In this document: one piece after another, positions 2,339-49,271 of the stretch | How the letters are laid out: each line of letters begins with the position of its first letter | Numbering within the stretch: the stretch's first letter is position 1 | Assembly: GCA_043806955.1 (NCBI GenBank) | Contig: JAZDGK010000257.1 | Location: 1 to 49,283, forward strand | Length of the DNA: 49,283 nucleotides | From: Pseudomonadota bacterium | GTDB taxonomy: Bacteria > Desulfobacterota > QYQD01 > JAZDGK01 | Direction: 5' to 3' | Position numbers and translations under genes: made by a program | Notes under the pieces: model-generated | Seen by the model: the letters and a program-made list of their open reading frames with translations, nothing else | Told to the model about the DNA's origin: nothing | The model's database searches: none

Positions 2339-2339
2339 A

Positions 2340-3102: not shown

Positions 3103-3186
3103 AAGGGAGAGTATGCCAACAGGAAACCGATCCTCGTTGGAGGATCGGCGTTCCATGCATTTGCAGTCTCGGAGCAAATGTTGAAT

Positions 3187-3248: not shown

Positions 3249-3278
3249 ACGGCCAGTCTGAGCATTGGAGCAAAAACG

Positions 3279-3899: not shown

Positions 3900-5252
3900 A
3901 TGTCTTTTGAAGATTTACAGTTGGTTACACCGATAATGAAAGCCCTGTTGGAATGCGGCCACACAGCCCCAACAGAAATTCAGGCCCAGGCCATTCCCAA
4001 GATTCTGGCCGGTAGTGATTTGATCGCCTCCGCCCAGACCGGCACGGGTAAGACTGCAGCGTTTTTGCTGCCGATCCTGCAACGCCTGAGCGCTGCCGGC
4101 TCCGGGAGCAAACGCGGCCCGCGAGCGCTGGTGCTTACGCCGACCCGTGAATTGGCGGAGCAGGTCGCGCAAGCTGCCCGGGTTTACGGCAAATACCTGG
4201 GTGTGAGAGGCGCCTGCATTGTAGGTGGAATGCCGTATCAGGAACAGCGCAGAGCATTGTCGAAAGCGCCCGATCTGATCATAGCAACCCCGGGACGTCT
4301 CCTGGATTACCTGGAACGAGGATCCATTAATCTGTCAGGCCTGATAGTGCTGGTATTGGATGAGGCGGACAGAATGCTTGACATGGGGTTCATAGAGGAT
4401 GTCGAGAGAATTGCCGCTGCTTCGGGAGCGGGACGCCAGACACTCTTGTTCGCGGCAACATTCGACAGGGCTGTGGCCAAATTGGCAGAGCGTATTTTGA
4501 GGAATCCGGAGCGTGTTGAGGTGACGGGTGTAAAAACAACCCATGAGCTTACGGAACAGCGCTTGCACATGGCTGACAACCTCGAACATAAGCACCGGCT
4601 GCTGCGGCATCTTGCTGCGGATCGCAGTCTGACCAAGGTGATCATATTTTCAGCCACGAAAAGGGACGCCGAGAGTCTTGCGCAAGAGCTTCGTTCCCAG
4701 GGTCATGCTGCGGCAGCGCTGCACGGCGACATGAACCAGAGCGCGCGAAACCGCACCATGAACAGCATGCGGCATGGCAGGATCAGGCTGCTTGTTGCAA
4801 CGGATGTTGCTTCAAGAGGCATCGATGTGGCCGGCATCAGTCATATCATTAATTTTGATTTACCGAGAAGCGCCGAGGATTATGTACATCGAATAGGCCG
4901 CACCGGCAGGGCCGGGGCTTCGGGTATCGCCATATCTTTTGTGCTGTCGAGGGAATTCGATGAGCTCTCACGTATCGAGAAATACATAGGGGAGACTCTG
5001 TCGGAATCCGTAATCCCCGGGCTTGAGCCCGAACGATCCTTATCTCTAATGAGAAGAAACAACCGGGGATGGCGGCAGCCGTATCACGAAAGTGGGCGAA
5101 GCAGGTTGCATCAGGGCGAATTCGACCGGAAACGCAATAGACTGACCGCCGGAGACTCCGGGAAGAGGGGATGGGGCTCGGACGGAGAGTCGAAAAAGGT
5201 GATTGTTGAATACCGGAATGGAAGATCAAGCCGGACAAAATGGATAAGCTGA
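3900..5252 (+). CDS. rhlE: DEAD-box RNA helicase (RhlE-like)
   Basis: Q motif, AQTGTGKT, PTRELA, TPGRL, DEAD, HRIGRTGRAG; motif III reads AAT; basic C-terminal tail. Confidence 0.9.
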   Translation: MSFEDLQLVTPIMKALLECGHTAPTEIQAQAIPKILAGSDLIASAQTGTGKTAAFLLPILQRLSAAGSGSKRGPRALVLTPTRELAEQVAQAARVYGKYLGVRGACIVGGMPYQEQRRALSKAPDLIIATPGRLLDYLERGSINLSGLIVLVLDEADRMLDMGFIEDVERIAAASGAGRQTLLFAATFDRAVAKLAERILRNPERVEVTGVKTTHELTEQRLHMADNLEHKHRLLRHLAADRSLTKVIIFSATKRDAESLAQELRSQGHAAAALHGDMNQSARNRTMNSMRHGRIRLLVATDVASRGIDVAGISHIINFDLPRSAEDYVHRIGRTGRAGASGIAISFVLSREFDELSRIEKYIGETLSESVIPGLEPERSLSLMRRNNRGWRQPYHESGRSRLHQGEFDRKRNRLTAGDSGKRGWGSDGESKKVIVEYRNGRSSRTKWIS

Positions 5253-5267
5253 TGATCAACAACTTAT

Positions 5268-5453
5268 GGATTCCCACTTTCGTGGGAATGACAAATGACG
5301 GCCTCGTAAAAAGTCGTCACTCCGGTGAAAACCGGAGTCCAGAGCTGCGGCAACTACTTGAATAGACCGGATTCCCGCTGGAGTTTACCCCGTACTTGAT
5401 ACGGGGCTGGAATGACAAGAAGTAGTACTTTCCGACTTCTTACGAGTTCATCA
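5268..5453. repeat. Cluster of REP-like hairpins, most inside an inverted-repeat element
   Basis: GGATTCCCACTTTCGTGGGAATGAC; TGACGGCCTCGTAAAAAGTC...GACTTCTTACGAGTTCATCA enclosing GTCACTCCGGTGAAAACCGGAGTCCAG; related hairpins at ~12048-12128 and ~44540-44626. Confidence 0.65.
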
Positions 5454-5457
5454 CAAA

Positions 5458-5725
5458 TATAGACTTTCAGATAATGTTTTTGGGAAGGCAGCAGGGAGGG
5501 GATAGTACCTGTTCGTACACCCCCGACCAATAAGGGTCTGTCACGGAATAACTTGAGCATTCTGAGCGCCGATCCATCCCGTCCGGCTGCGTTGCTCGTC
5601 GGTTGCATACTCACAGTATGCGCCCTCCTCGCGCCTTGCCAGACGGGCGCCTCAGCACGCAGAATTGCGCAACTTATTCCGTGACAGACCCTAACGCACC
5701 CAAAAGCTTTATCTGGAAGTCTATA
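5458..5725. mobile_element. Family B MITE interrupted by a nested element
   Basis: Equals the 107-bp copy at 22703..22809 plus a 161-bp insert. Confidence 0.85.
5534..5691. mobile_element. 158-bp MITE with TAA target-site duplication
   Basis: Perfect 18-bp TIR GGGTCTGTCACGGAATAA; TAA at 5531-5533 and 5692-5694. Confidence 0.9.
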
Positions 5726-6072
5726 TCAGGCGCATTCTATTAAAAAACTATACCACGATTCTCATAAAGTCAAGGGTGCCGGCGTAACCGTTCGCCGTTG
5801 ACCATTTTCCGTTCACCCTTTTAACCTACCCAACTTCTCACCTTCTCACCTTCCATCCTTTTCGCATTCCGCAATTGATGCACCCCACGCAGTATTTTTT
5901 GTACAAGGGACCAAGATGGAAAAACCCCGATCAATTCTGGCAGGATTGAAACGTACGCAACTGGATCAGCCAATAACCATCCCCTCCAGCCGCAAAAGCG
6001 ATTGCCCTTTGCAAATAATTGTGCTATAGGGAGCTATCCTTATGATGTGGATTTCTCGCAATTAAACCGGCT

Positions 6073-7341
6073 GTGAATTCTCCCCAGAGCGCAAGTTCAG
6101 AATCTTTCCGCTTGGACGATCTTCCTGACTTTCTCGATCAACTGGATCGGGCAGGTATTGCTGCTTTCTTCGTGGAAGACGGCCGGTGCAGGAGCGTAAA
6201 CAACTCGTTCTGCATTCTGTTCCAAATAGAATCTGCAGGCAAAGCGATCGGCGCCAGAATGACTGATTTCCTGCCCGATACATCTTCGTCGCAGAACTTG
6301 ACATCATTCTGCACCCAACCCTCCCCGGTATCCGAAAGGCCGTTTCGTCTGGAAATACAATTCGCGTCCATAGCAGGGAGAACGGGTGCGTACCTGGGTG
6401 TGATTAAGCATCCGTCCATAAATCTACTCAAAAAAAGGACCATGCCGGCCGGCGCTGCGTCACCTGAGTTCTCATCGAGTTCCTCCGGCGACAGTTTCGG
6501 CCCTTGCGCCATGGAAGGATTCGAAGATCTCGCCGCATGGATAAAAAGAGAATCGGATCTAAACCTTGACTATTACAAGTCCAGAACCGTTGTGCGCCGT
6601 ATCGAAAAGCGCTTGCTGGAGACAGGATGCAAAAATTGCCATGACTACTTGAATCTCCTGAAGAACAGTGCGGGCGAAAAGCGAAACCTGACTGAGTATC
6701 TGACAGTCGGGTTCACGGAGTTTTTCAGGGACGTCAAGGTTTTTGGCTTCTTGAAGGAGAGAATCTTTCCCGAAATTATTAACGGCAGGAAGTGTGCCGG
6801 CTCCGAATGCAACGGCCGCGATGCCCGAAAAGACGACATAAGGATCTGGTCCGCGGGAACGGCCAGTGGAGAAGAGGCTTATTCTGTGGCCGCTCTTGCG
6901 CTTGGCGCCTCTTCGGGCACGAGTCTGTTGCCCGTAGTATTTGCGACCGATGTCAGCGAAAACAAGATAAATATAGCGCGCAAGGGTGTGTACAGTTCAG
7001 AAAAGAGCTGGGGGATTCCCGCCGAGATGAGAAACCTTTATTTCTCATCAACTTCCAAGCTTTCCTTCAAAGTGTCCGATGCCATCAGGCGTCTATGCGT
7101 CTTTGGGCGCCATAACCTGATTGCGGATCCCCCTTACGGAAACATGGACCTGGTGCTTTGCCGGAACGTAATGATTTATTTCACGCCAAAACTTCAAGAG
7201 CAGATCACAGCAAACTTGATGTGGTCCTTGATCCCCGGCGGCTATCTGGTGCTCGGAAGCTCTGAATCGCTGCCGGGATCCGCAATGGGTAAATTTGAAG
7301 TAGTCGAGTCGGAATTGCACATTTATCGGAAACGCAGATAA
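6073..7341 (+). CDS. cheR: CheR-type protein-glutamate O-methyltransferase with N-terminal extension (possibly PAS-like)
   Basis: YKSRTVVRRIEKR, TEFFRD, IRIWSAGTASGEEAYS, DLVLCRNVMIYF, GGYLVLGSSES; start uncertain. Confidence 0.88.
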   Translation: MNSPQSASSESFRLDDLPDFLDQLDRAGIAAFFVEDGRCRSVNNSFCILFQIESAGKAIGARMTDFLPDTSSSQNLTSFCTQPSPVSERPFRLEIQFASIAGRTGAYLGVIKHPSINLLKKRTMPAGAASPEFSSSSSGDSFGPCAMEGFEDLAAWIKRESDLNLDYYKSRTVVRRIEKRLLETGCKNCHDYLNLLKNSAGEKRNLTEYLTVGFTEFFRDVKVFGFLKERIFPEIINGRKCAGSECNGRDARKDDIRIWSAGTASGEEAYSVAALALGASSGTSLLPVVFATDVSENKINIARKGVYSSEKSWGIPAEMRNLYFSSTSKLSFKVSDAIRRLCVFGRHNLIADPPYGNMDLVLCRNVMIYFTPKLQEQITANLMWSLIPGGYLVLGSSESLPGSAMGKFEVVESELHIYRKRR

Positions 7342-7353
7342 GGAGCGTAGTTC

Positions 7354-9723
7354 ATGGGTGTCAACGGGGCTGCACGCGTAATGATTATCAACGCTTACGA
7401 GAAAGCGATGGATAAGATCGCAGAGTATTGGAAAACTGAAATAGAACCCGTAATCGGCGGGAGTTTTGAAGAATCCACCGGGCTGAAACCGCTGTTTTAT
7501 GATCTCTGGCATTTTCCACCGGAATCCACCCATAATTTCTTAAGAGAACTGACTCGCGATGTTCAGCAGTGGCCCAAAATTTCTGAGGCCGTTGTAGCTA
7601 TATCTACAAATATCTTAATCCCGCAGATTCTGGAAGAATGTCGAGACAGAACCGATCCGGCAAAGTGCATGGAGTTGTTCCATCATAGTCTTTCGCAGAC
7701 TGTGGCCGAGATTACAAGGGCTTCCATTCTGGAACTCAATACTACACTGCGTCAGTTCCAGGAAGAACACCAGTCCACTGTTGAAGAGATCCGTTCCATG
7801 AATGAAGAGCTTCGCACGGCAAATGAGGAAATTAGAGCTTCTCTTGATGAAGTGCGACAGTTCAAAGACAGATTGGAACTGATGACCAATCAGGCGAGTG
7901 ATGCCATACTCGTTGTCGATGCTTCAAGCTATCAAATTACTGAGGCAAATCGTAAAGCCGAAGAAATATTTGGCTGGTCGCGCAGTGACATGATAGGCAG
8001 CTCACTGGTGCGACTCTGCCCGGCATCCCACCTTCGGCTTCTTTTTGAACGTTTAGATAAATTGGGGCGCGGCGGGCAAATCCGTTTTGATGACGTACCC
8101 TTTATCTCCAGAGATGAAAGGGAATTTCCGGTAAGTGCAAGTATCGCACGGGTCCAGACGGACGAAGAGAGCGTATATTTTATGATCCTGAGGGATATCC
8201 TTGCACGCAAGCAGACAGAAGAAGCGCTGGTTCGTGCCAAAGAGGACTGGGAAAACACATTTGATGCCATAACCGATCTGGTTATGCTCCTGGACAACGA
8301 ACACACCATAGTCCGTGTAAACAAAGCGGCAGCAGAAGCCCTGGCCGCGACAAAAGAGGACCTGATCGGGAGAAAATGCTACGAGATCATACATGAGACC
8401 AGCCGTCCGATCAAACAATGTCCCCTCACTGTAACCATAAATAAGATGAAACCCCATACACGTGAAATCACCATCCCGATGATTGGAGGGACATTTATAT
8501 GCGCCACGGCCCCCATGATCGATCGTGAAGGGAAGACAGTGGGATTTACCCATACTCTCAAGGATATTACCAAATCAAAACAGCTTGAGCTCTCCTTTCA
8601 TCAGGCAATGAGGATGGAATCCATAGCAACTCTGGCCGGAGGCATTGCTCATGACTTCAATAATCTCCTGATGGGCATCCAGGGATATACATCTTTAATG
8701 ATGAACTCACTTCCGCCCACTCATAACCACTACGACATGCTCAAGAGGATTGAGGCCTCGGTGACCAGCGGTGCGGAATTGACAAAACAACTCCTGGGTT
8801 TTGCCAGAAAAGGCAAATATGATGTGAAGCCGGTCAGCCTCAATGAAATTATCAGGAAAAGTCTGGCCATATTCGGACGCGCCAGAAAAGAGATAATTAT
8901 TGGAGAAAAGTACAGAGAAGACCTGTGGGCGATTGAAGGTGACCAGGGTCAGATAGAACAGGTGCTCTTAAACTTGTACGTGAATGCCTGGCAGGCCATG
9001 CCGGCGGGCGGCGAACTCCATTTGGAAACCGACAATCTGGTTGTAACGGAAGACGTTATCAGTCCTCTGAATCTAGACTCCGGCAAATACGTTCGCGTCT
9101 CTGTAGCCGATACCGGTATCGGCATGGATGAAAAGACCCAGCAGAGAATCTTTGACCCGTTCTTTACGACGAAAGAGATGGGGCGGGGCACGGGACTCGG
9201 ACTGGCATCTGCATATGGCATCATCAAGAACCACGGTGGCATTATTACCGTCAAGAGCAGAGTCGGTTATGGTACCGTGTTCACCATATATCTGCCCGCC
9301 TCGGACAAAGAAATAACCCCGGATATTCCTCCGGGAAAGGCAGAAATGGAAAAAGGCAGTGAAACCATTCTGTTGATTGACGATCAACAGATCGTCCTCG
9401 AGGTCGGAAAGGAACTTCTGGACGCTCTGGGATACAATGCAATTCTGGCGCGATCGGGTCACGAGGCCGTCGAAGTCTATAAACAGAGGATAAACGAGAT
9501 AGACCTGGTGATCATTGATATGATTATGCCCGGCATGGATGGCGGGGAGACTTACGATGTCTTGAAACGTTTGAACCCCGGGATAAAAACGATTCTTTCG
9601 ACAGGTTACAGCATCGATGGAGATGCTGCAGAGATTATGAAACAAGGGGTAAACGCCTTTATCCAGAAGCCGTTCAGCATGAAAGACCTCGCGAACAAGA
9701 TAAGGGAGGTGCTGGATAAGTGA
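7354..9723 (+). CDS. Cytoplasmic hybrid sensor histidine kinase (coiled coil-PAS-PAS-HisKA-HATPase-REC)
   Basis: H-box AGGIAHDFNNLL, N-box, DTGIGM, GTGLGL, receiver LIDD...IDMIMPGMDG...KPF; no obvious TM segment. Confidence 0.94.
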   Translation: MGVNGAARVMIINAYEKAMDKIAEYWKTEIEPVIGGSFEESTGLKPLFYDLWHFPPESTHNFLRELTRDVQQWPKISEAVVAISTNILIPQILEECRDRTDPAKCMELFHHSLSQTVAEITRASILELNTTLRQFQEEHQSTVEEIRSMNEELRTANEEIRASLDEVRQFKDRLELMTNQASDAILVVDASSYQITEANRKAEEIFGWSRSDMIGSSLVRLCPASHLRLLFERLDKLGRGGQIRFDDVPFISRDEREFPVSASIARVQTDEESVYFMILRDILARKQTEEALVRAKEDWENTFDAITDLVMLLDNEHTIVRVNKAAAEALAATKEDLIGRKCYEIIHETSRPIKQCPLTVTINKMKPHTREITIPMIGGTFICATAPMIDREGKTVGFTHTLKDITKSKQLELSFHQAMRMESIATLAGGIAHDFNNLLMGIQGYTSLMMNSLPPTHNHYDMLKRIEASVTSGAELTKQLLGFARKGKYDVKPVSLNEIIRKSLAIFGRARKEIIIGEKYREDLWAIEGDQGQIEQVLLNLYVNAWQAMPAGGELHLETDNLVVTEDVISPLNLDSGKYVRVSVADTGIGMDEKTQQRIFDPFFTTKEMGRGTGLGLASAYGIIKNHGGIITVKSRVGYGTVFTIYLPASDKEITPDIPPGKAEMEKGSETILLIDDQQIVLEVGKELLDALGYNAILARSGHEAVEVYKQRINEIDLVIIDMIMPGMDGGETYDVLKRLNPGIKTILSTGYSIDGDAAEIMKQGVNAFIQKPFSMKDLANKIREVLDK

Positions 9724-9915
9724 GTTGCGAGTTTCGGGTTTCGGGTTACGAGTCGCGTGTCAAAAGCTTCGATTTAACTGGTTTGTTTAGTTTGTTTGGT
9801 TTGTTTCGTTTGTTTCGTTTCCCAATTCACTCCCGTATACAACCCGCAACTCCTCAGCACTCAATACTCAGCACTCATCACTCTCTTCTCAATCCGCAAT
9901 CCGCAATCCGAAATC
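9723..9915. repeat. Composite short-tandem-repeat tract
   Basis: GGTTTCG, TTTGTTTGG, CAGCACT and AATCCGC units around a core TTCACTCCCGTATACAACCCGCAACTCCTC that recurs at ~21521-21640, ~24608-24697 and ~31535-31628. Confidence 0.75.
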
Positions 9916-9933
9916 AGGACGCCCGCAACTCGA

Positions 9934-11847
9934 CTATATCTTCAATGCCACCTCCGTGGCGCTTCGGAGCGCCGAACCGAGATTGCCCGGGGTTTCGGCT
10001 TCGCCCACATGGACGAGCTCTTTCACCCTACCTTTCAACTGCTCGAACAGCGTCTTGTCAGGTCTTGCACCTGCCGCCAGTACGATAGTGTCCACTTCGA
10101 CCTGGAACTCTGATCTGTCCTTATTCTCAAGAGAGACAAAGGTTCCTTTTATTTCGACGACCCTCGTCTCGACGAATACTTTTACGCCCTTTTCTTCTAA
10201 TCTTTCAATCAATCGTCCCCGCGGAATTTCTTTGCTCTTCGGAATGATTTCAGGGAGGACTTCCACAATCATAACCTCCCTTCCCGGACGGGCGATCAAA
10301 TCCGCAGTTTCGCATCCAATGTCGCCGCCGCCGATAACAAGCACTCTTTCTCCCAAAGAGGCCCCTTTCCGGTAGAATTCCCGTGCATCAATAACCATCT
10401 CGGATTCTATGCCGGGGATCGGCAGGCGGTTCGGTATTGACCCGGTCGCCAGAACCACCGTGTCTGCGTGCGAGTCAATCACGCTCTGTGCCGTCCCCGC
10501 AAGGACCAGACTTATTTTGGCGCCGCTTCTCTTTACAGAGTCTTTGAGATGACGCAGGGCCTCTGTCATTTCGTCTTTGAACAGGGCCTTGTTTGCCAGG
10601 CGCAACTGTCCCCCAAGTTCGGCCTCACGCTCCCACAGATCTACGTCATGGCCTCGTTTTGCCGCTACGATTGCGGCTTGCATCCCGGCCGGCCCCCCGC
10701 CTATAACCAGGACCTTTTTTCTCACTGCTGCGGGCAAAACCGCCCAGAGATATTCAAGGCCTGAAAATGGATTAACTGTGCACGCCCTGCCCAAACCGGG
10801 CACCCCCTTCTCCGTACAATCCTCAAGACAGTATACGCATCCTCTTATGCCTGCGACATCGCCGGAAAGCGCTTTGGATGGCAGGTCCGGATCAGCCACA
10901 AGCGCCCTGGCCATTGCCACAAAATCTGCTTTTCCGCTTGAGATTATCTCTTCGGCCAGAGCGGGGGTATTTATTTTTCCTATGGCGATTACGGGAATGG
11001 AAACTGCCGCTTTAATACGGGCAGCCACATCAGTCAGGCAGCCCGGAGCCGCATCATGACCCGGTATGGTTATGTATTTGGTGCTTTTGTTTCCCGCATT
11101 GGCAAGGATTGCATCACAGCCGGCCTTTTCCGCCCACACAGCGACCGCAGCGGCATCCTCAACTGTCAAGCCGCCGGGAACAAACTCGTCGCACGCGAGC
11201 TTGACCATAACAGGAAAGCTTCCGCCGGTATATTCTTTAGCTTTCGAGATAAGATCCGTCAGAAAACGAGACCGGTTCTCGAGCGTTCCGCCCAAGTCGT
11301 CAACCCGCTTATTAGTAAGCGGAGATAATAGCCGGGATATCAGGTCCCCATAACTTGCCTGAATCTCTATCCCGTCATATCCCATGTTTTTTGCAAGTGC
11401 CGTACCTCGGGCCATAATTTCCATTATTTCCGATGCGTCTCTTGAAGACATACCGTTGGCCAGGTCAATCGCCCAGGTCTCGCCCTTCTTCTTGGCCCCG
11501 GGAACCCCGGCTTCACAGACTCTCTCCTTGGGATAGTTCAATTGCATGAAGGCCTTCGCGCCTGCCATATGGATGGTGTTGAGCAACTCCGAAACGCCGG
11601 CACGATGTTCATCGGTATCCGCCCGGATTTCCTGCGGTCCCTTGTAGGCACGAGGATAATCCAGGCAAAGGCAATCCAGGATAATCAAAGAGACCCCGCC
11701 TCTGGCACGCCACGCGTAAAACGCCTTCATACGGTCGTTCACTTTGCTGTCGGTGGCGTATTTGGTGGGATAAAGAGGCATGATAATCCTGTTCCGCAAA
11801 TCGCATTTGCCGATTCTGCCCGGCTGAAAAACGTGGGGAAAATGCAT
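9934..11847 (-). CDS. NADH:flavin oxidoreductase (Old Yellow Enzyme TIM barrel + Fe-S motif + FAD/NAD domain)
   Basis: LRNRIIM, SPLTNKRVDDLGGTLENRSRF, ARALVADPDLP, CVYCLEDC..C, VIGGGPAG, VIGGGDIG; AGGAGG RBS before ATG 11847. Confidence 0.9.
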   Translation of the reverse strand: MHFPHVFQPGRIGKCDLRNRIIMPLYPTKYATDSKVNDRMKAFYAWRARGGVSLIILDCLCLDYPRAYKGPQEIRADTDEHRAGVSELLNTIHMAGAKAFMQLNYPKERVCEAGVPGAKKKGETWAIDLANGMSSRDASEIMEIMARGTALAKNMGYDGIEIQASYGDLISRLLSPLTNKRVDDLGGTLENRSRFLTDLISKAKEYTGGSFPVMVKLACDEFVPGGLTVEDAAAVAVWAEKAGCDAILANAGNKSTKYITIPGHDAAPGCLTDVAARIKAAVSIPVIAIGKINTPALAEEIISSGKADFVAMARALVADPDLPSKALSGDVAGIRGCVYCLEDCTEKGVPGLGRACTVNPFSGLEYLWAVLPAAVRKKVLVIGGGPAGMQAAIVAAKRGHDVDLWEREAELGGQLRLANKALFKDEMTEALRHLKDSVKRSGAKISLVLAGTAQSVIDSHADTVVLATGSIPNRLPIPGIESEMVIDAREFYRKGASLGERVLVIGGGDIGCETADLIARPGREVMIVEVLPEIIPKSKEIPRGRLIERLEEKGVKVFVETRVVEIKGTFVSLENKDRSEFQVEVDTIVLAAGARPDKTLFEQLKGRVKELVHVGEAETPGNLGSALRSATEVALKI

Positions 11848-11880
11848 ATATCCTCCTGTAAGAAACTTAGAAGTCTCAAT

Positions 11881-11996
11881 CATACCATTTTAGGATCGAT
11901 TTCCAATGTTCAATGCTCAATAACCAATTTCCAATCAGGATCAACTACCTTGGTGGACATTGAGTATTGGCCATTTGATATTGGGAATTGACCCAT
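11881..11996. repeat. Dispersed ~120-bp element of inverted CAATGTT / ATTGGAC heptamers
   Basis: CATACCATTTTAGGATC...CAATGTTCAATGCTCAATAACCAAT...GGGAATTGACC; copies at 24473..24585 (reverse), 33152..33278, 33543..33662, partial at 22819..22892. Confidence 0.8.
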
Positions 11997-12204
11997 GCGC
12001 GGTATATTGACTTCCAGATAAAGCTTTTGGGTGCGTTATCGGTCGGGGTCATTCCGGCGAAAGCTGGAATCCGGTAATTTCAAGCAGATTAGAATACTCC
12101 TGGACACCGGTTTTCACCGGGGTGACGACTCTTGCAAGAGCCTCATGCGAAAAAGTCTTTTCGGTGAACGGTCTACTGTGAACGGTGAACGGTTTATGGC
12201 GGGA

Positions 12205-40030: not shown

Positions 40031-40060
40031 AAGCCGATCCTTTTTACAACATTCACCGAT

Positions 40061-40137
40061 TTAGTTTGTCTGGTTTGTTTGGTTTATTTGGTTTATTTAG
40101 TTTATTTAGTTTGTTTGGTTTGTTTGGTTTGTTTGGT
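40061..40137. repeat. 9-mer tandem repeat (TTTGTTTGG-like)
   Basis: About eight degenerate units of TTT(G/A)TTT(G/A)G. Confidence 0.85.
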
Positions 40138-40788: not shown

Positions 40789-42525
40789 CTACCGCACCGG
40801 CAGATATATCGTGAAGACCGTGCCTTCTTCCGGATCGCTCCGGCATTCAATTCTACCTCGATGCGCCTCAATAATGCCCTTGACTATGGAAAGGCCGAGG
40901 CCGGTTCCTGACTTACGCTTCGTGGTGAAAAACGGCTCGAATATCTTTTCCATTATACCAGGATCTATGCCGGACCCTGAGTCGGTCATGTTTATCCGGA
41001 GGTTCTCTCCGCTTATCGAGCCTTCGATAAGTATCTTCCCCCCGCTGCCGATCGCGTCCAGACTGTTCTTTATCATATTGTTAAACACCTGGTAAATCTG
41101 TCGATAGTCGATACTTATGGCCGGAATACCAGGCTGCCATTCAAACCCAAGAACAATGCCTCTCCGCTCCGCCTCCGGCCCGTATACGAACAAGACCTCT
41201 CGAATAATATCGTCCACGGAAGAGGCAACCAGATGGAGCTCCGGTTTCCTGGCGAACTGAAGGAAGTCCTGAATAAAACTCCTCACCCGAACCGAATCCT
41301 TCTCCAGGATCTCCAACGCTTTCTTCCCCCGGGAAGTGGATGCCTCGTCCTTTAGTATGGAAACGACAAGACCTATATTGTTGAGCATGTTCCCGACCTC
41401 GTGCGTAACCTTGCTGGAAGCGGATCCCAGAATGGCCAGGTTTTTCGCATGTACCAGTTCTTTAGCCGTCTCGATCTCCCGCTTTATGTAGTTCTTCAGT
41501 GAATCGGTCATCTGGTTGAAGGATACGCCAAGATCACCGATTTCGTCCTGAGCGTCTATAGATACCTTTTTATCCAAATCGCCCTCGCTGATACTCTTTA
41601 CCTGACGGTGCAGGTCCTGAATGGGCAGGAGGAAGCGCCTCACCCGGTTCAGTCCCAGGAGTATGGCTGCAAGACAAATGAAACACGTCATGAAAACGGC
41701 CCAGTGGGCGTTATCGTAAAGATAGGTGTAGATCTCTGCATACGTTTGGCTGAGCACGACAATCCAGTCGAGACCGCTTATGTAATAACCTAGACAGTAC
41801 AACTGCTGATCCCCTTCTTCTTCCATCCATTGCACAGGAGCCTCAGTCTGTGATATTCTTTCCATTATGGCCCGGTCCTTGCGGGGACCTTGTTTGATGA
41901 CGCGATCGATTTCCCGGTGGCCGATAATCCGTCCTGACCGGTCCAGAATATAGACTTGCCCGGTCTGCCCAATACGGATTCCTTCGAGAATGTCCCAAAC
42001 GGACTTAAGATTGAGCTCGGCCCAGAGGACCTCGCCTGCCTGTCCCAGTTTTTTTACCGGAACAGCTAGACAGAGGTACGGCAACCCTTCTTTGGTTATC
42101 AAAACGGGAGAAACAGCGGATTGCCCTGCAAATGCCTTCGCCAGTATTTCCCTCTCACAGCGCCCCGGGTGGGTTCTCTCGGTACCGGCTGCCTGTATTT
42201 CGGTTCCGTCTCTGGAGATCAAGGATACGGAGATGAATTGAGGAGAGGTATGGGTAAATGCCGTGAGAGAAATCTGCTTTTGCCACTGGTCCAGCTTTGT
42301 GGCTGCAATAACCAGGGCCAGACTGTCCAGGCCCTTCCGGGCGTTTTCCATGTAGAGCCTGATCTGACCTGCGCAGCTCTTGAGTATGTTTTCATAGTCC
42401 TGGTTTATAGTCTTCAGGGCGTAATTATGACTTGTCCAGGTTAGAATAAGACTGGTAAGTATGATCGAGAATATTACCAGAGGGAGTACAAACAGGAGGA
42501 ACTTATAGATGATCTTGGTCTTCAT
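40789..42525 (-). CDS. Membrane sensor histidine kinase (TM-Cache-TM-HAMP-HisKA-HATPase)
   Basis: Two TM segments, Cache-like GQTGQVYILD..G.IIGH, HAMP DEIGDLGVSFNQM, H-box THEVGN, DSGSG, GTGLGL. Confidence 0.92.
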   Translation of the reverse strand: MKTKIIYKFLLFVLPLVIFSIILTSLILTWTSHNYALKTINQDYENILKSCAGQIRLYMENARKGLDSLALVIAATKLDQWQKQISLTAFTHTSPQFISVSLISRDGTEIQAAGTERTHPGRCEREILAKAFAGQSAVSPVLITKEGLPYLCLAVPVKKLGQAGEVLWAELNLKSVWDILEGIRIGQTGQVYILDRSGRIIGHREIDRVIKQGPRKDRAIMERISQTEAPVQWMEEEGDQQLYCLGYYISGLDWIVVLSQTYAEIYTYLYDNAHWAVFMTCFICLAAILLGLNRVRRFLLPIQDLHRQVKSISEGDLDKKVSIDAQDEIGDLGVSFNQMTDSLKNYIKREIETAKELVHAKNLAILGSASSKVTHEVGNMLNNIGLVVSILKDEASTSRGKKALEILEKDSVRVRSFIQDFLQFARKPELHLVASSVDDIIREVLFVYGPEAERRGIVLGFEWQPGIPAISIDYRQIYQVFNNMIKNSLDAIGSGGKILIEGSISGENLRINMTDSGSGIDPGIMEKIFEPFFTTKRKSGTGLGLSIVKGIIEAHRGRIECRSDPEEGTVFTIYLPVR

Positions 42526-42535
42526 AATCCTCTAA

Positions 42536-42772
42536 GAGGGTATCTAAAAAGTCTCAATTTTGTTCAAGGTCAAGGAAGGCGAGGATTCTAACCCTTGAAG
42601 GCTGGAAGGCTGGGATGCTGGGAGGCGAGAAGGCTGAGAGGCAATCCCAGCGGGTCGGCTTTCCAGCTTTCTGGCTTCGGCCTCCTGGCTTCCTGGCTTC
42701 CTGGCCTTCTGAGGATTAGAATCCGAGCCTGACGCAAAGATTGGGCAAAAGGGAGACTTTTTGGATACCCTC
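42536..42772. mobile_element. Family A MITE with TAA TSD and inserted octamer repeats
   Basis: TIR GAGGGTATC(T/C)AAAAAGTCTC; TAA at 42533-42535 and 42773-42775; interior matches 1..140 plus GGCTGG(A/G)A / CCTGGCTT tracts. Confidence 0.8.
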
Positions 42773-42874
42773 TAAGGAATTGCCGGACTCGCTGACCTCA
42801 CGTATAAGGGATCTTGGGAGAATTGTAAAGATTTTTGAGAAGAGACCATGCGCGGGTCCCTCGCAACCCCCGGT

Positions 42875-44185
42875 TCATGCAGCATTTTCTATCCTGGAGG
42901 CTGTATCTTCAGGGGGTATTCTGGAGGCTTGTTCCATTATGTAATTCTCCAGAAAAAAGCGGTTTGCGTCATAGTGGCAATCGATCCCGTTAAAACCGTT
43001 GTTGCCGACCAGGGCCTGCAGCCGGCAGCCGCCCATACAGATGGGGAGGATCGGGCATTCCTTGAGGCATTTTTCCGGCAGGATACGGTTCAGCTTCTGG
43101 CTTTCCAGGATAAAATCGATTCCCTTATTCACGTGACCGTAGGCCATCTCGCCACCCTGCACAGACGGACAGGGTATAATGGAGCCGTCGGTATCAAAAA
43201 TGAACTTGGACTGGAAATCGGCCATACAAGCAGTGGAGGGAGGCTCTTCGAATTGCGGATAGCCCCTCTTTTCCGCTTCCTGCATCAGAAATAGGGCAAT
43301 TTTTGGATCGCCCATACCCGACTCATAGCTGTCCTCCTTTCTGCTCCGCAGAATAGCAGTAAAGGCAATGTTTTCAACAACGATTCCCCTTTCTTTGAAA
43401 TCATCCAGCATCACGGGTATGCTTAAGTAATCCTGGGATCCGCTGTCGTACTGGCATTCTATATTTATCCGAACCTGGCCTGATATGGCTTGGAGATTCT
43501 TTACTATCCGGTCGTATGTCTTTCCATTCTCTTTTGAGGGGCGCAGGGCATCATGGACCGGCGCCGGTCCGGCCATACTGACACGAATCCCGCCGAGTCC
43601 TGTCTCCTGCATTTTTGCAATCAAATCGTAATTGACCAATGTCCCATTTGTCGTGATTGTGAAGGAGTATTCGACTCCCTTCCCCAGACAGTAATGGAAC
43701 CGCCTCGATGCACTTTCCAATATAACTCCGGGGTTTAATAGTGGTTCACCACCGAGATAGTCGTCACTGACGTTCTTGGGATTCCTCTCGTTGATAATAC
43801 CGATGTAGAAATCATCCATAACCTTGGCCACTTCCGGAGACATATGTCCGGCTTCAGCATCCAGGATGCAATAGCGGCAGCGATTATTGCATTGCCGGGT
43901 GACGAGGACCTTTGATTTGACCGTGCTTGAATCGTATACATGCTGGTGCTTCCAGTGATGAAATACCGCTGTCTCGTCGGTATCTTCCTTTAACAGAAAG
44001 CCTTGTTCACAGAGGGTATCACCATCATCGGGCGACATGTCGACCTCCCCGGTCACAGAGTGCCAAGCCATCCCGGGCATCAGCGCCAGGGCTTTACTCA
44101 TGGTGTGAAACAAGGCCACAAAATCCCGGCCATCCTTTTCAACGGGGACTTCCACCACGAACCGCGACTTCTTGAGGCGAGCCAT
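42875..44185 (-). CDS. Radical SAM/SPASM domain protein, putative peptide maturase
   Basis: CNNRCRYC, GGEPLL, TTNG; SPASM-type C..DGSIIPC...CLKECPILPICMGGC...C; ~90-aa N-terminal extension; AGGAG RBS. Confidence 0.92.
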   Translation of the reverse strand: MARLKKSRFVVEVPVEKDGRDFVALFHTMSKALALMPGMAWHSVTGEVDMSPDDGDTLCEQGFLLKEDTDETAVFHHWKHQHVYDSSTVKSKVLVTRQCNNRCRYCILDAEAGHMSPEVAKVMDDFYIGIINERNPKNVSDDYLGGEPLLNPGVILESASRRFHYCLGKGVEYSFTITTNGTLVNYDLIAKMQETGLGGIRVSMAGPAPVHDALRPSKENGKTYDRIVKNLQAISGQVRINIECQYDSGSQDYLSIPVMLDDFKERGIVVENIAFTAILRSRKEDSYESGMGDPKIALFLMQEAEKRGYPQFEEPPSTACMADFQSKFIFDTDGSIIPCPSVQGGEMAYGHVNKGIDFILESQKLNRILPEKCLKECPILPICMGGCRLQALVGNNGFNGIDCHYDANRFFLENYIMEQASRIPPEDTASRIENAA

Positions 44186-44226
44186 ATCTTCTCCTTGACA
44201 GGACTACGGTCAAAGCGAATAAACAC

Positions 44227-44260
44227 GCCCCCCGGTGAGGTCAAACCTGTCCCGGGGGGC
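44227..44260 (-). promoter_or_regulatory. GC-rich hairpin between peptide and maturase genes
   Basis: GCCCCCCGG / CCGGGGGGC 9-bp stem with inner AGG/CCT pairing; only a weak U tail. Confidence 0.7.
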
Positions 44261-44275
44261 TTTGTTACTGCAGAA

Positions 44276-44368
44276 CTAACTTCGGCCGTTGGGGGCATTT
44301 TTACAGCAGACCAATCCGGTTTTGCTGATTGTGAAATTGCCCTTTTTGATGACTATCAGTCCTTTCAT
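44276..44368 (-). CDS. Putative RiPP precursor peptide MKGLIVIKKGNFTISKTGLVCCKNAPNGRS (30 aa)
   Basis: Translated by hand (absent from the ORF track); strong AAAGGAG RBS just upstream of ATG 44368, TAG stop, directly upstream of the rSAM/SPASM gene. Confidence 0.8.
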   Translation of the reverse strand: MKGLIVIKKGNFTISKTGLVCCKNAPNGRS

Positions 44369-44696
44369 CGCTTACTCCTTTCCTGGGTTTAATAGGCACT
44401 CCTGAGATAGCCCTTCTTATCGGCAACCATGATCTCATGCTTTAACGTGTTTTGACAAAAATGAATGCAAATCCCTATACTAGTGATTCCGTCAGGGAAT
44501 CAGAATGACAGGCGCCCAGTGCTTAATTGCATTAATCCATTGTCACTCCTGTGGAAACGGGAATCCAGTATTTTCGATGGATTCCTGCTGGGGTTTACCC
44601 TGGCGAAAGCGGGGGCGGGAATGACAAGATATATTGGTTATTTCTGCAATTTGACACTGGACTTGGGCGGAAGGGGATTGAATCTCGCGGAGATGG

Positions 44697-46253
44697 TTAT
44701 GGAGAGGATTTTCCGCTCATGCTTCTGTCCAGCGATGCATGCTTCAGTCGAGACCTGCCTTCCAGCGTGAGGCTAAAAGGATACCGCAATCTGAATCTCT
44801 TAGACATTACATCCACTACGGTCTTTCGAAAAAGAAACAAGGCTGGATGGTTCGAGATGACCAGATCGTATGATGGGTTGATAGATATGCCTTTCCCCTT
44901 CAAATTCTTCGTCAGGCCGGATTGACAGGCCAGTCTGCGGAGGGTATCAGGATCAACACTCCCGGTTCTTTTCCCCACATTGGATGCGGGGCAAAAAAGC
45001 GAAGGGCCAAGCCTGTATTCGGTGATAACCGCCTGGAAATCCCTGCTATTTCGATAACGGGCAGCAAGAGACTCAAAAGGAAGTGCCTTTATTTGCGTCC
45101 TGATCCCCAGGTCACTGAAACAGAGCTGCAGACAGGCGGCAACCTTCTTTTCAACCTGATACTCATCAAATACATAGATCGTGAAATCGAAAGGCCTTCC
45201 GTCCCTTCGAAGCCTGCCATCTTCCGATAGATTCCAGCCTGCTTCTTTCAAGAGCGCGAGAGACTTCGCCGGATCAGGTCTCTCTTCGGGAGACAAATCT
45301 GTTGGTATCTTACCAAATCCCGACAAGGCTTCTTCAACAATGCGCTTTCTGTCCACCGCGCAAGCAAGGGCCTGCCTTGTCTTCAGGTCTGAAAACAGTG
45401 GATCGCACACATTGAAAAGCAGCACCGTACAGTAATTGAGACAGTTGACGTTGAAATAATACTCCGCCTTCTTGTCCTTCATAATATCATAATCGCCCGG
45501 AGCTATTTCCGAAGCCACATCGGTCTCGCCTGAGAGCAGTCTCGCCCAGGTTTTCTCCCCGTGACGCTGGCAATAAAAAACAATTCGGTCCAACTCCGGA
45601 CGGCCGCCATAGTATTTCTCGTTGGCCACAAGCCTTACTTCCGTGTTACCTTTTTTAGATTCAAACCTGAATGGACCCGAACCTATCGGGGAACAATGAT
45701 CGGCGCCATTTTTGCCGGGTTGTGGGATTATTTCAACAGGCCATATTCTGGTCAAAAAGTCAGGCTGTTCTTTTTTCAATACTATGACTATCCTGTTGTC
45801 GGAAACAGGAAGAACCTCTCGAATTGAAGCAAAGAGAATCGGGTCGTAATTCCGTAACACAGTATCTATTGAATAAACTACATCATCTGCTCTAACCACT
45901 CTTCCGTCATGGAATCGTGCGTCTTTTCTAATAGATATAGTCCAGGTAAACGTCTTCGAATCGTAGGTCCATTTTTCTGCAAGATCCGGTTCCAGTTCAC
46001 CTTCGGGATTGGGAATGCAAAGGTAGCTGTACAAGAAAGGAAACAAATGATCTGAACCGCAACAGGCATCTGCTGGATTGAGCGAGGCCAAAGGCGCGTT
46101 TACATCGTACCGTAGCACATTCTCACTTCGGATTTCGTCTTTGCCGTGACCATCTATTCGATTGCACGAAGCAAGCAGAAACAGCGCCAGCAAAGCAAAG
46201 AGAATTCGGGGATGCTTAGGCCGTTCCCCCCACTTTCCGAGGTGGATCTTCAT
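44697..46253 (-). CDS. ABC transporter family 5 solute-binding lipoprotein, paralog 1
   Basis: Lipobox LASC, PDLAEKW, FHDG, ADDVVYS, PIGSGPF. Confidence 0.88.
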   Translation of the reverse strand: MKIHLGKWGERPKHPRILFALLALFLLASCNRIDGHGKDEIRSENVLRYDVNAPLASLNPADACCGSDHLFPFLYSYLCIPNPEGELEPDLAEKWTYDSKTFTWTISIRKDARFHDGRVVRADDVVYSIDTVLRNYDPILFASIREVLPVSDNRIVIVLKKEQPDFLTRIWPVEIIPQPGKNGADHCSPIGSGPFRFESKKGNTEVRLVANEKYYGGRPELDRIVFYCQRHGEKTWARLLSGETDVASEIAPGDYDIMKDKKAEYYFNVNCLNYCTVLLFNVCDPLFSDLKTRQALACAVDRKRIVEEALSGFGKIPTDLSPEERPDPAKSLALLKEAGWNLSEDGRLRRDGRPFDFTIYVFDEYQVEKKVAACLQLCFSDLGIRTQIKALPFESLAARYRNSRDFQAVITEYRLGPSLFCPASNVGKRTGSVDPDTLRRLACQSGLTKNLKGKGISINPSYDLVISNHPALFLFRKTVVDVMSKRFRLRYPFSLTLEGRSRLKHASLDRSMSGKSSP

Positions 46254-46404
46254 GAGTCCGACAGGCTCCTGGAAGGTTTAGGCTCTTTGTATGTAAAAAT
46301 GTGACAAAAATCAATCATGTTTTTGCCGGACAGTCAACGGACAACGGTCCCATCCGCTTCGTAGGATGCACTGCACAAAAGGGGAGTGAATCACGCGGAG
46401 ATGG

Positions 46405-47961
46405 TTATGGAGAGGGTTTTCCGCTCATGCTTCTGTTTAACGATGCATACTTCAATCGAGATCTGCCTTCCAATGTGAGGCAAAAAGGATATCGCAGTTT
46501 GAACCTCCCGGACATCACGTTTACGACCGTCTTACGAAAAAGAAACAAGGCCGCCTGGTTCGAAACAACAAAATCGTATGTTGGATTGAAGGATATCCCT
46601 TTCCGCTGCAAATCTTTCATAAGGCCTGATTGACAGGCCAGTTTGCAGGGGGTGTTGGGATCAAGACCTCCTGCTTTCATTCCTGTATGGGACGGGCAGA
46701 AAGGAGAGGAACCAAGCCTGTATTCGGTAATAACCGCCTGGAAGTCCCTGTTATTTCGATAACGGCCGGCAAGAGACTCAAAAGGAAGGGCCTTTATTTG
46801 CGTCCTGATCCCCAGGTCACTGAAACAGAGCTGCAGGTAGGCGGCAACCTTCTTTTCAACCTGATACTCATCAAATATATAGATCGTGAATTCGAAAGGC
46901 TTGCCGTCCCTTCGAAGCCTGCCGTCTTGTGATAGATTCCAGCCTGCTTCTGTCAAGAGCGCCATAGACTTGGCCGGATCAGGTCCCTCTTCGGGAGAAA
47001 TATCTGTCGGTATCTTACCAAATCCCGACAACACTCCCTCAACAATGCGTTTTCTGTCTACCGCGCCGGCGAGGGCCTTCCTTGTCCTCAAATCTGAAAA
47101 CAACGGATCCTTTACATTGAAAAGCAGCACTGTACAGTAGTTGATACAGTTCGTATCGAAATAATACTGTTCCTTTCTTCCCTTTATCATATCGTAATCA
47201 TCCGAATCTATTTCCGAAGCCACATCGGTCGCACCCGAGAGCAGCCTTGCCCAGGTCTTTTCCTTGTGAGGCTGGTAGTAGAAGACAATTCCGTCCAACT
47301 TCGGACGGCCGCCATAGTATCCTTCATTCGCCACAAGCGTCACTTCTGTGTTGCCCTTTCTGGATGCAAACTTGAACGGACCCGAGCCTATAGGGCGATA
47401 CCCATTCGAGCCATTCTGCCCGGGCTGCGGGACTATTTCTGTGGGCCAGATCTTGGTCAAATAGTCCGGTTGGTCTTCTTTCAGTACTATGACTATCCTG
47501 CTGCATGAAACAGCATAAACCTTTCGGATCGAGGCAAAGAAGACCGGGCTATGATTTCGCAATAGAGTATTTATTGAATAAACTACATCATCTGCTTCAA
47601 CCTGCCTTCCGTCATGGAATTGCATGCCCCTTCTAATCGATATCGTCCAGGTAAACGTCTTCGAATCATAGGTCCATTTTTCTGCAAGATCCGGTGCCAG
47701 TTCACCTTCGGGATTGGGAATGCAGAGATAGCTGTACAAAAAAGGGAAGAAATACCCTGAACCGGAAGAAGGATCATCCGCAGGATCGAGCGACGTAAAG
47801 GGAGCATTCACGTCGTACCGCAACACATTTTCACTTCGGATCTCGTCTTTGCCATGACCATCCATTTGATTGCACGAAGCGAGCAGCAGCGGTACCAGCA
47901 AAGCAAAGAGAATTCGGGGATGCTTGGGCCATTTCCCCCACTTTCCGCAGTGGATCGTCAT
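46405..47961 (-). CDS. ABC transporter family 5 solute-binding lipoprotein, paralog 2
   Basis: Same motifs and length (518 aa) as paralog 1. Confidence 0.88.
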   Translation of the reverse strand: MTIHCGKWGKWPKHPRILFALLVPLLLASCNQMDGHGKDEIRSENVLRYDVNAPFTSLDPADDPSSGSGYFFPFLYSYLCIPNPEGELAPDLAEKWTYDSKTFTWTISIRRGMQFHDGRQVEADDVVYSINTLLRNHSPVFFASIRKVYAVSCSRIVIVLKEDQPDYLTKIWPTEIVPQPGQNGSNGYRPIGSGPFKFASRKGNTEVTLVANEGYYGGRPKLDGIVFYYQPHKEKTWARLLSGATDVASEIDSDDYDMIKGRKEQYYFDTNCINYCTVLLFNVKDPLFSDLRTRKALAGAVDRKRIVEGVLSGFGKIPTDISPEEGPDPAKSMALLTEAGWNLSQDGRLRRDGKPFEFTIYIFDEYQVEKKVAAYLQLCFSDLGIRTQIKALPFESLAGRYRNNRDFQAVITEYRLGSSPFCPSHTGMKAGGLDPNTPCKLACQSGLMKDLQRKGISFNPTYDFVVSNQAALFLFRKTVVNVMSGRFKLRYPFCLTLEGRSRLKYASLNRSMSGKPSP

Positions 47962-48074
47962 GAGTCCGACAGGCTCCTGGAAGGTTTGGGTTCTTTGTAT
48001 GTAAAAATGTGAAAAAAATCAATCATGTTTTCTGCCGGACGGTCAACGGTGAACGGTTACTAAAGTCACACGGG

Positions 48075-49271
48075 TCAGAAATCTGTCCATGCAGTTCTGA
48101 ATTGTTTTCCGGCGACAACTAATGATGACGCCAGCATTAGCAATGCCCCGAGTGTGAATAGTAACTGCGGACCCCATGTGTTCAGAATCACAGCGCTGCT
48201 CAGCATGACACCCAGGAAGCATGTGCCTTTGAATGCGGCGAGCGCCGGCATCGTCCTACTCAAAGCGCCGGTGCTTTCCTGCTGGATGAGGCTTTCGAGA
48301 AGGACGTGCAGCAGGGAAAAACCGAAGCCGAGCAGGATCATGAGTGGAAGCATGTGCGCATGGAAGGAGGGGACTCCTGCTATAGCCATGCTTCCCCCGG
48401 CTATCAGCAGGCCCAGAGAGACCAGGACCTCGCCCTTCCATATCAATGAGCATTTCGGGAGCAAACACGTAGCCAGAAAAGAACCGGCGGTATACCCGGA
48501 CATGAGGATGCCCCAATCGGCAATGGTTCCGGACTGTGCCTTGACGAGCATGGGAAAACCAAGATTCAGAGTTCCGCCCCCAATCAGCACAATCCCGAGC
48601 ACGGCGAAACGGCCTTTCAGAACAGGACTGAGCTGGAAAGGTTCCACGTATTTGCAGAACAAGGACCTCGCGTCCGTACCCTCTCCCCTCTTCGCCCCCC
48701 CTGACCTTGCCTCACATGACGGCAGTTTACTGCCGGCAAACGCGGCAATCAAGAAAAGAAGCGCAGCAACGGCTAAGGCCGTTTCTCGACCTGCCTTCAA
48801 AACAATCCAACTGATAATCCATGGCCCGCATATTCCCCCGGCGAGGGCCACTCTTTCGTTTAGAGAGTTAAAAGATATAATCCAGTCTTTTTGTACGATC
48901 ATGGGTGTAATATAAAGTCTGCCGATGTAGAAGAATAATGAGCCGACAATTATGAGGAGATAGAGGGGCAGGACCGTACAGCGGGAGACAGACAGGATGA
49001 GAAGGACGGCCACGGCGGCCTTGCCGAGGTTCACGCCGGCAAGCCACTTCTTTCCTTCAGAACGATCAATCCAGAAGCCGGCAACATGGCTCAAAAGAAT
49101 TGAAGGGCCCTGTTCAAGGATACCCATCAGGAGGAGATTAGAAAACGCGTTTTCTCTCGTGAAGACAAGCAAATTGAGGAGAGCCAGCCCGACAAACCGG
49201 TTTCCCAGATCTGCCAGCAAATCACACACGATTAAGAGATTTCCGGCACGGCTGCGAACGAATCCAGGCAT
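48075..49271 (-). CDS. MFS transporter (H+ antiporter / macrolide efflux-like)
   Basis: About 12 hydrophobic segments and motif A-like AGFWIDRSEGK; true start may lie near or beyond the window edge. Confidence 0.85.
   Translation of the reverse strand: MPGFVRSRAGNLLIVCDLLADLGNRFVGLALLNLLVFTRENAFSNLLLMGILEQGPSILLSHVAGFWIDRSEGKKWLAGVNLGKAAVAVLLILSVSRCTVLPLYLLIIVGSLFFYIGRLYITPMIVQKDWIISFNSLNERVALAGGICGPWIISWIVLKAGRETALAVAALLFLIAAFAGSKLPSCEARSGGAKRGEGTDARSLFCKYVEPFQLSPVLKGRFAVLGIVLIGGGTLNLGFPMLVKAQSGTIADWGILMSGYTAGSFLATCLLPKCSLIWKGEVLVSLGLLIAGGSMAIAGVPSFHAHMLPLMILLGFGFSLLHVLLESLIQQESTGALSRTMPALAAFKGTCFLGVMLSSAVILNTWGPQLLFTLGALLMLASSLVVAGKQFRTAWTDF

Follow-up and report, generated by a model that had tools for sequence, protein, structure and literature searches.

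Peptide signaling is textbook biology in monoderm bacteria. To our knowledge, it is almost unheard of in diderm bacteria, and it is rare there because a peptide of ~3 kDa cannot freely pass the outer membrane. Here, we describe a gene module from a Desulfobacterota bacterium (assembly GCA_043806955.1) in which a short peptide with two adjacent cysteines and its putative radical S-adenosylmethionine (SAM)/SPASM maturase are encoded together with a TonB-dependent receptor, orphan solute-binding proteins (SBPs), and a sensor kinase. The stretch analyzed, hereafter the window, is the entire contig JAZDGK010000257.1 (C257; 49,283 nucleotides). The module lies at one end of it and apparently runs on into a second contig (C200).

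Methanobactin operons, which are controlled by an extracytoplasmic function (ECF) sigma pair, offer one precedent for such a gene set. In these operons (PMC7558416), a ribosomal peptide (precursor MbnA) is made, exported, and re-imported by a dedicated TonB-dependent transporter (MbnT), and an OppA/AppA-like periplasmic protein (MbnE) binds it. The module follows a similar logic with different parts. Its maturase is a radical SAM/SPASM enzyme rather than MbnB/C, its putative exporter is from the major facilitator superfamily (MFS) rather than being the multidrug and toxic compound extrusion (MATE) protein MbnM, and a Cache kinase with a sigma-54 regulator provides its control. In the cluster proteins, Pfam and NCBIfam scans found radical SAM/SPASM only and no MbnB/MbnC-type maturase, and MbnE is not among the 54 solved relatives of the third SBP at E ≤ 1e-10.

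The module also resembles sensors that read their ligand through a binding protein. LuxP-LuxQ and TorT-TorS are binding-protein-dependent sensor kinases, and we know of no use, by these two or by DppA-Tap, of a TonB receptor that delivers a self-made modified peptide. As in binding-protein-dependent kinases and chemoreceptors, the gene for an orphan periplasmic SBP lies next to that for a membrane kinase, and no cognate permease is linked; unlike in those systems, a TonB-dependent receptor would deliver the ligand, a modified peptide of the cell's own making. TonB-gated periplasmic sensing is represented by PfeA with PfeS/PfeR (enterobactin, Pseudomonas) and by SusC-type transporters with hybrid two-component sensors (Bacteroides). 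There, too, a TonB-dependent transporter delivers a large ligand to the periplasm, a kinase reads it, and the system is induced, but the ligands are siderophores or glycans rather than an own ribosomal peptide, and no binding protein stands in between. SBP-to-receptor signaling is established, with DppA-Tap listed as one such pair; loaded SBPs stimulate sensor kinases; and family 5 is the principal peptide-binding SBP family (PMC10443332). A search of titles and abstracts on radical SAM/SPASM RiPPs (peptides made on ribosomes and modified post-translationally) with TonB receptors, SBPs, kinases, or Geobacter, with subscription journals outside its coverage, returned nothing on this module. The parts are ordinary, and we found no characterized precedent for the whole TonB-gated, SBP-coupled kinase loop around a self-made RiPP.

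A conserved module around a Cys-Cys peptide

We find that the arrangement is far from chance, as it recurs in dozens of genomes. A profile of 19 maturase homologs yielded 34 loci in species-representative genomes, almost all of them metagenome-assembled genomes (MAGs) and almost all labeled Desulfobacterales, Desulfobacteraceae, Syntrophobacteraceae, Desulfarculales, or Thermodesulfobacteriota. Searched with the proteins of the window's own genome (tblastn), the loci show a recurring order of regulator, receptor, SBP, precursor, maturase, MFS transporter, and kinase. Partners were counted in two sets of loci: 31 with a radical SAM protein at least 40% identical, and 16 with at least 6 kb of upstream and at least 4.5 kb of downstream sequence (well-flanked). 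The SBP is present in 26/31 loci and in 16/16 of the well-flanked set, the kinase in 26/31 and 15/16, the TonB-dependent receptor in 22/31 and 16/16, the MFS transporter in 17/31 and 9/16, and a full-length sigma-54 regulator in 13/31 and 11/16. Contig ends account for many of the absences in the set of 31. The initial annotation, made from the window alone, had proposed a make-export-bind-sense signaling system and expected SBP, MFS, and kinase genes to accompany radical SAM homologs elsewhere. This proposal is partly supported: the linkage of SBP and kinase holds in the well-flanked loci, and that of the MFS transporter holds in only about half of them. The annotation had not foreseen that the receptor is as conserved as the SBP, that the genome has a second precursor and a third SBP, or that the module is akin to the geopeptide family.

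Opp-type permease or ATPase genes occur near the radical SAM gene in 1 of the 34 loci (L014), and the window's genome has a single Opp-type system, with its own SBP, on a different contig (C154). The prediction that the SBPs are orphans, with no cognate permease just outside the window, thus agrees with what is seen, and a remote, unlinked permease is possible. The annotation had also reported the absence of an ABC permease or ATPase, a protease, and a response regulator. That is correct within the window and incorrect for the genome, which has a regulator on C200 and the Opp system on C154.

All six features named at the outset (MFS transporter, two SBPs, precursor, radical SAM/SPASM enzyme, and Cache-HAMP kinase) are confirmed by open reading frame (ORF), Pfam, and NCBIfam scans, co-oriented on the minus strand within 40789-49271. 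The final 141 bases of the window are identical to the first 141 bases of C200, and no contig of the assembly other than C200 holds the window's terminal 100-mer. Judged by this 141-base overlap, which is the only join, the module, of about seven genes and with its larger part in the window, continues onto C200, and synteny elsewhere agrees. Inspected beyond position 49283, as the annotation had suggested, the module gains a sigma-54 regulator, a TonB-dependent receptor, a third SBP, and a second precursor, with no linked permease.

The precursor gene of the window (44276-44368, minus strand) has 30 codons with a Cys-Cys core and is supported by a strong upstream ribosome-binding site, its ORF, and an alignment of homologs. 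Its paralog on C200 encodes 32 residues and has its own ribosome-binding site. Just past the stop codon of the first lies a G+C-rich hairpin (44227-44260, minus strand; −31.7 kcal/mol, z −2.8), and another follows the second precursor (−35.3 kcal/mol, z −4.2); such a hairpin may act as an attenuator, a terminator, or a transcript stabilizer. Of 33 fetched loci that were scanned, 30 have a small Cys-Cys ORF ahead of the radical SAM gene; none was found there in L030, L037, and L039, and L028, truncated at the radical SAM gene, was left out of the scan. Adding the two copies of the window's genome gives an alignment of 32 precursors of 26 to 37 residues. The Cys-Cys pair is invariant in all 32, as is a Pro four or five residues after it. 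A Gly about 10 residues ahead of the pair is present in more than 90%, with an aromatic residue one position past it. The N-terminal stretch is basic and hydrophobic, and most of the peptides end in Arg-Asn. Searched against 1.84 billion protein representatives, the precursor profile gave 31 matches at E ≤ 0.001, all of 27 to 61 amino acids, and in nearly all of these the match reaches the C-terminal end. The precursors form a small, specific family that is always free-standing. Compared with NCBIfam at E values up to 10, they gave no family match.

Two family-5 solute-binding lipoproteins of 518 residues each are encoded on the minus strand upstream of the precursor: SBP1 (46405-47961; SBP_bac_5, E 1.2e-63) and SBP2 (44697-46253; E 1.8e-61), the latter directly upstream of it. 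In all 16 well-flanked loci, an SBP occupies the place held here by SBP2. Both have an N-terminal lipobox-like signal ending in Cys. They are tandem paralogs, 77% identical to each other and 48 to 50% identical to SBP3 on C200 (48% for SBP1). The SBPs of nearly all related loci match SBP3 best, which identifies SBP1 and SBP2 as lineage-specific duplicates. The best solved relative of SBP3 is Bacillus subtilis AppA (1.4e-39), a nonapeptide binder, with NikA at ~1e-22.

The sensor kinase (40789-42525, minus strand; 578 residues) has a periplasmic dCache domain followed by HAMP, HisKA, and HATPase modules (Pfam dCache_1, HAMP, HisKA, and HATPase_c). Its periplasmic domain is conserved across 24 sequences, and comparison with solved structures gave weak Cache matches only (PctB, E 0.0015), which are uninformative on the ligand. 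Complex prediction from alignments, pairing SBP3 (residues 28-523) with this domain (residues 31-270), reached 0.27 at best against a mark of 0.32; it was run with no controls and is counted neither way. The regulator on C200 combines a receiver, a sigma-54 AAA+ domain, and HTH_8, and is AtoC/ZraR-like at 379 bits. Because the kinase core is AtoS/ZraS-like (NCBIfam), an NtrC-type regulator of this kind fits as its partner. The C200 TonB-dependent receptor (Plug and barrel) is BtuB-like, at scores far below every cut-off. The MFS protein (48075-49271, minus strand; 398 residues) is a DHA3-like putative exporter with two weak model matches (MFS_1, 25.3 bits against a cut-off of 33.4; TIGR00900, 37 bits, E 1.9e-9) and is conserved least among the module's parts.

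In about 12 loci, an extra sigma-54 activator that has no receiver, and in which no HTH was detected, lies between receptor and SBP (for example, L012 6740-7876, L015 3484-4695, and L030 8098-9345); it is absent from the window's genome. A divergent pair of a hybrid kinase and an OmpR-type regulator, considered as a downstream cascade beside the sigma-54 regulator, was excluded from the module, as it occurs in only 7/34 loci.

Kinship with the geopeptide family

The maturase (42875-44185, minus strand; 436 residues) carries a radical SAM core (PF04055, 44 bits) preceded by an N-terminal region of ~90 residues, and a SPASM domain (TIGR04085, 42 bits against a cut-off of 27). All 19 homologs retain the cysteines of the two regions. 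At E ≤ 1e-20, 208 homologs were found, none with an informative name. The best family is TIGR04280, the geopeptide radical SAM maturase, an NCBIfam "hypothetical equivalog." The window enzyme aligns to it over residues 7-418 of 436 and scores 204.1 bits against a cut-off of 400. Judged by these profile scores, the maturase is a sub-threshold sister of TIGR04280. A literature search found no experimental work on the geopeptide family, with subscription journals outside its coverage.

Its best solved relative is 5wgg (E 2.4e-13), the thioether-forming SCIFF maturase CteB. Models of other thioether-forming SPASM enzymes also match, all below their cut-offs (PapB, 92.9 of 340 bits; SCIFF maturase, 72.4 of 425; CcpM, 87.7 of 500). 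The likeness to thioether maturases such as PapB and the SCIFF/ranthipeptide enzyme CteB extends to a substrate that is Cys-rich at the modified site. In contrast to those families, the window enzyme stays far under the family cut-offs, and its precursor has two Cys only.

We surveyed both types of enzyme across 401 sampled genomes of the phylum. TIGR04280 is matched above its cut-off in 25 of them, at 419 to 679 bits. The window-type maturase, defined by the profile of 19 homologs at E ≤ 1e-60, is present in five and strong in two, the window's own genome and G293; among nine genomes of the class, the own genome is the only one that has it.

Twelve loci were fetched from the TIGR04280 search, 11 above the cut-off and one (L072) below. 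In 11 of the 12, the radical SAM gene lies beside a packed unit of receptor, binding protein, and kinase, with gaps of a few bases. The binding protein of these packed units belongs to PF04392, which is unrelated to family 5; L072 has a family-5 SBP and a kinase in its stead. PF04392-like genes were found neither in any locus of the main family nor on the own contigs. Solved members of PF04392 bind aromatic amino acids (PMC10443332). The precursors of geopeptide loci again have a Cys-Cys pair, and a scan of five of these loci showed no exporter. Intermediate loci, whose radical SAM proteins are 26 to 28% identical and score ~300 bits on TIGR04280, keep the receptor, a family-5 SBP, a Cys-Cys peptide with a longer tail, the radical SAM enzyme, and the kinase. 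Thus, what stays constant across the superfamily is the Cys-Cys peptide with its SPASM maturase, the TonB-dependent receptor, the kinase, and an orphan binding protein from one or the other family.

The two branches are alike in having a radical SAM/SPASM enzyme of ~430 residues that aligns to TIGR04280 over its full length, an adjoining ~30-residue peptide whose Cys-Cys, close to the C-terminus, is invariant, and an adjacent receptor, orphan periplasmic binding protein, and histidine kinase. They differ in several respects. The window-type enzyme, at 204 bits, falls below the 400-bit cut-off. Window-type precursors have a basic N-terminal half, which is acidic in geopeptides, and a conserved Pro four to five residues past the Cys-Cys. 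The window-type binding protein is PF00496 rather than PF04392, and its kinase has a dCache sensor. Finally, window-type loci usually also have a linked MFS transporter and sigma-54 regulator.

Possible roles of the peptide

Building on the parts observed and how well their linkage is conserved, on the promoter motif, and on the absence of a linked ABC importer, we infer that the peptide is made, released, re-imported through the receptor, and sensed by SBP and kinase, with sigma-54 feedback. We favor this reading tentatively, at somewhat less than an even chance. The predicted chemistry comes first: the maturase would cross-link the ~30-residue peptide through its two adjacent cysteines, as its kinship to thioether-forming SPASM enzymes suggests. 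The MFS protein would then carry the peptide over the inner membrane, and the dedicated TonB-dependent receptor would draw outside peptide back to the periplasm. There, the orphan binding lipoproteins might capture it and hand it on to the kinase, or the Cache domain of the kinase might read the peptide together with them. The kinase would phosphorylate the NtrC-type regulator, which would fire the sigma-54 promoter ahead of the precursor gene and so close a self-reinforcing, TonB-gated sensing loop.

Three features of the loci point this way. The receptor is dedicated to the module, which suggests that the ligand is large and external. Its tight linkage to precursor and maturase suggests that this ligand is the product itself. 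Because the family of the binding protein has been swapped with its place and kinase partner kept, and because linked ABC importers are lacking, the binding protein is likely to serve periplasmic sensing rather than ABC import.

The promoters are consistent with a feedback circuit. Of the 32 precursors, 22 have a −24/−12 sigma-54-type motif 50 to 95 nt ahead of the start codon, compared with a background for the same score of 238 in 1,029,928 positions of the loci, or ~1% per 46-nt window. For the second precursor, on C200, one such motif sits 69 nt upstream. A sigma-54-dependent regulator together with sigma-54-type motifs before most precursor genes fits a circuit in which the regulator feeds back on the precursor. 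Matches in scans for sigma-70 promoters and terminators were no commoner than in shuffled sequence. The assembly encodes 22 strong sigma-54 activators.

Strong sigma-54-type motifs were also seen facing away from the regulator gene, toward a divergent PAS or hybrid kinase gene. One is at position 9482 of C200 (L005, plus strand), and others are on the minus strand of L010 (4308), L012 (3233), L013 (4144), L014 (4123), L018 (4405), and L019 (4524). The module regulator may also drive this second, outward-facing target.

Several observations weigh against a self-sensing loop. The promoter window and score threshold behind the 22 of 32 precursors were set post hoc, after seeing the data, although the contrast is large. 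The precursor of the window itself has no convincing sigma-54 motif (best score, 8/12); it has a sigma-70-like match only, of a kind that is not enriched (12 found versus 8.6 ± 3.1 in shuffles). The gene rpoN (PF04552 and PF04963) was not found in the 86%-complete assembly and probably belongs to the 14% of the genome that is missing. Direct binding of small ligands is common among Cache domains. The top NCBIfam models on all three SBPs are NikA and CntA, which are nickel and staphylopine binders, all far below their cut-offs. The MFS gene is missing from 7/16 well-flanked loci, and export is thus not always encoded. L019, a well-flanked locus, shows no kinase within 6.4 kb, and in L049, beside an IS1634 transposase, precursor and maturase are the only parts of the module within 16 kb. 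The loci are non-independent, coming from related MAGs, and the link between C257 and C200 depends wholly on their 141-base overlap.

We regard it as unlikely, if well worth weighing, that the peptide is a methanobactin-like metallophore. The modified Cys-Cys peptide would then be secreted and, in sulfidic habitats, chelate a thiophilic metal in short supply (Ni, Co, Cu, or Zn); the receptor would take up the loaded peptide, the family-5 SBPs would hold it, and the kinase and regulator would only tune production to it. The gene logic is that of methanobactin operons, with a receptor, an orphan OppA/AppA-like binder, a ribosomal precursor, a maturase, and an inner-membrane exporter, and for those operons, too, no inner-membrane importer is known (PMC7558416). 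The invariant Cys-Cys pair and the NikA and CntA matches agree with this idea, as does the receptor, which is the most widely kept partner across the superfamily. However, those matches score 4 to 8 times below the cut-offs, and the best solved relative of the SBP binds peptide. Control is by a two-component system and sigma-54, and the loci showed neither a metal-responsive regulator nor a riboswitch, for cobalamin or otherwise. A linked cytoplasmic importer is also lacking in 33/34 loci. The nearest characterized enzymes use up cysteine thiols for thioethers, and the binding protein of geopeptide loci comes from the family whose solved members bind aromatic amino acids.

It is improbable, in our estimate, that receptor, SBP, and kinase sense a foreign cue, such as the peptide of another organism or a nutrient, and that the Cys-Cys peptide is only a regulated output, for example an antimicrobial or an intracellular factor. 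The absence of the MFS gene from 7/16 well-flanked loci, the five geopeptide loci with no exporter seen, and the retention of precursor and maturase alone in L049 would all suit such an arrangement, and binding of the peptide by the SBP is deduced rather than observed. Against it, precursor and maturase stay with receptor, SBP, and kinase over a range of 26% to 65% radical SAM identity and through a change of binding-protein family. Such persistence is hard to explain unless the sensed molecule is the product. The best solved relative of the SBP, moreover, binds a nine-residue peptide.

An immunity role, which the initial annotation had offered as an alternative, is unlikely, because the cluster encodes an outer-membrane importer and not a protection device. 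The remaining probability falls to other functions.

Extended to the whole superfamily, the self-sensing loop would make geopeptide-type Cys-Cys peptides the autoinducers of an undescribed peptide communication system in diderm anaerobes, with release, TonB re-import, hand-off from SBP to kinase, and sigma-54 amplification at the precursor promoter. This generalization is possible, and we hold it with considerable doubt. If it is true, the tandem SBPs and two precursors of this genome would be diverging signal-receptor pairs. If the sensing reading holds, a self-made peptide with its own TonB gate, an orphan SBP, and a kinase shows a way across the outer-membrane barrier. The geopeptide family, so far defined by bioinformatics only, thereby gains a concrete and testable function. 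Should the peptide instead carry metal, a metallophore of sulfidic habitats made by a radical SAM enzyme would likewise be a novelty. Under either reading, the list of parts, the precursor family, and the promoter now have enough definition to allow expression, binding, and reporter experiments.

Neighboring features and environmental reads

On C200, in the same orientation as the module, a palindromic insert is followed by the second precursor and then by SBP3; two unassigned 116-codon ORFs and one TPR gene on the opposite strand also occur there, along with the receptor and the NtrC-type sigma-54 response regulator. The insert (L005, 162-370 of C200) lies between the start of the MFS gene and the second precursor and is bounded by inverted arms of 21 nt, which are 95% complementary and stand 167 nt from each other. 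Possibly, a small palindromic element inserted here and splits the cluster into two halves.

The L049 locus (G293:C193, 1826-8675) encodes a 55%-identical maturase and a precursor and adjoins a gene resembling a B12-binding radical SAM methyltransferase. It may be a relocated or differently wired copy of the module.

Next to the kinase gene, 22 bases past its stop codon and on the same strand, starts a gene for a 137-residue CxxCxxCC protein (PF03692; 40354-40767). This protein and the neighboring Usp protein were considered as parts of the module and rejected, since neither has a counterpart in any of the 34 loci. A 9-bp tandem repeat (40060-40137; 8.7 copies, 89% matching) separates the Usp gene from the CxxCxxCC gene. 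An Rfam scan of the window, of C200 positions 1-12000, and of three related loci found tRNAs only, with no riboswitch before the receptor.

Small shares of the reads matched in four groundwater sequencing runs, of which three were aligned (X1-X3); the DNA runs contain relatives that are mostly 90 to 95% alike. In one RNA library, exact contigs cover only the MFS gene and the MFS-SBP1 junction, leaving the precursor uncovered. These contigs are a weak hint of expression of the MFS/SBP1 region, and DNA carry-over is a possible source as well.

Three intergenic stretches of the window (42493-42776, 44481-44764, and 46185-46468) reach 12 to 413× coverage in three groundwater runs, compared with 0 to 6× for the flanking genes. 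Many loose ends occur at these positions, and Tandem Repeats Finder (TRF) reports short internal repeats at 42597-42700. The three stretches look like copies of a short interspersed repeat, similar to repetitive extragenic palindromic (REP) sequences or miniature inverted-repeat transposable elements (MITEs), that is common to many organisms.

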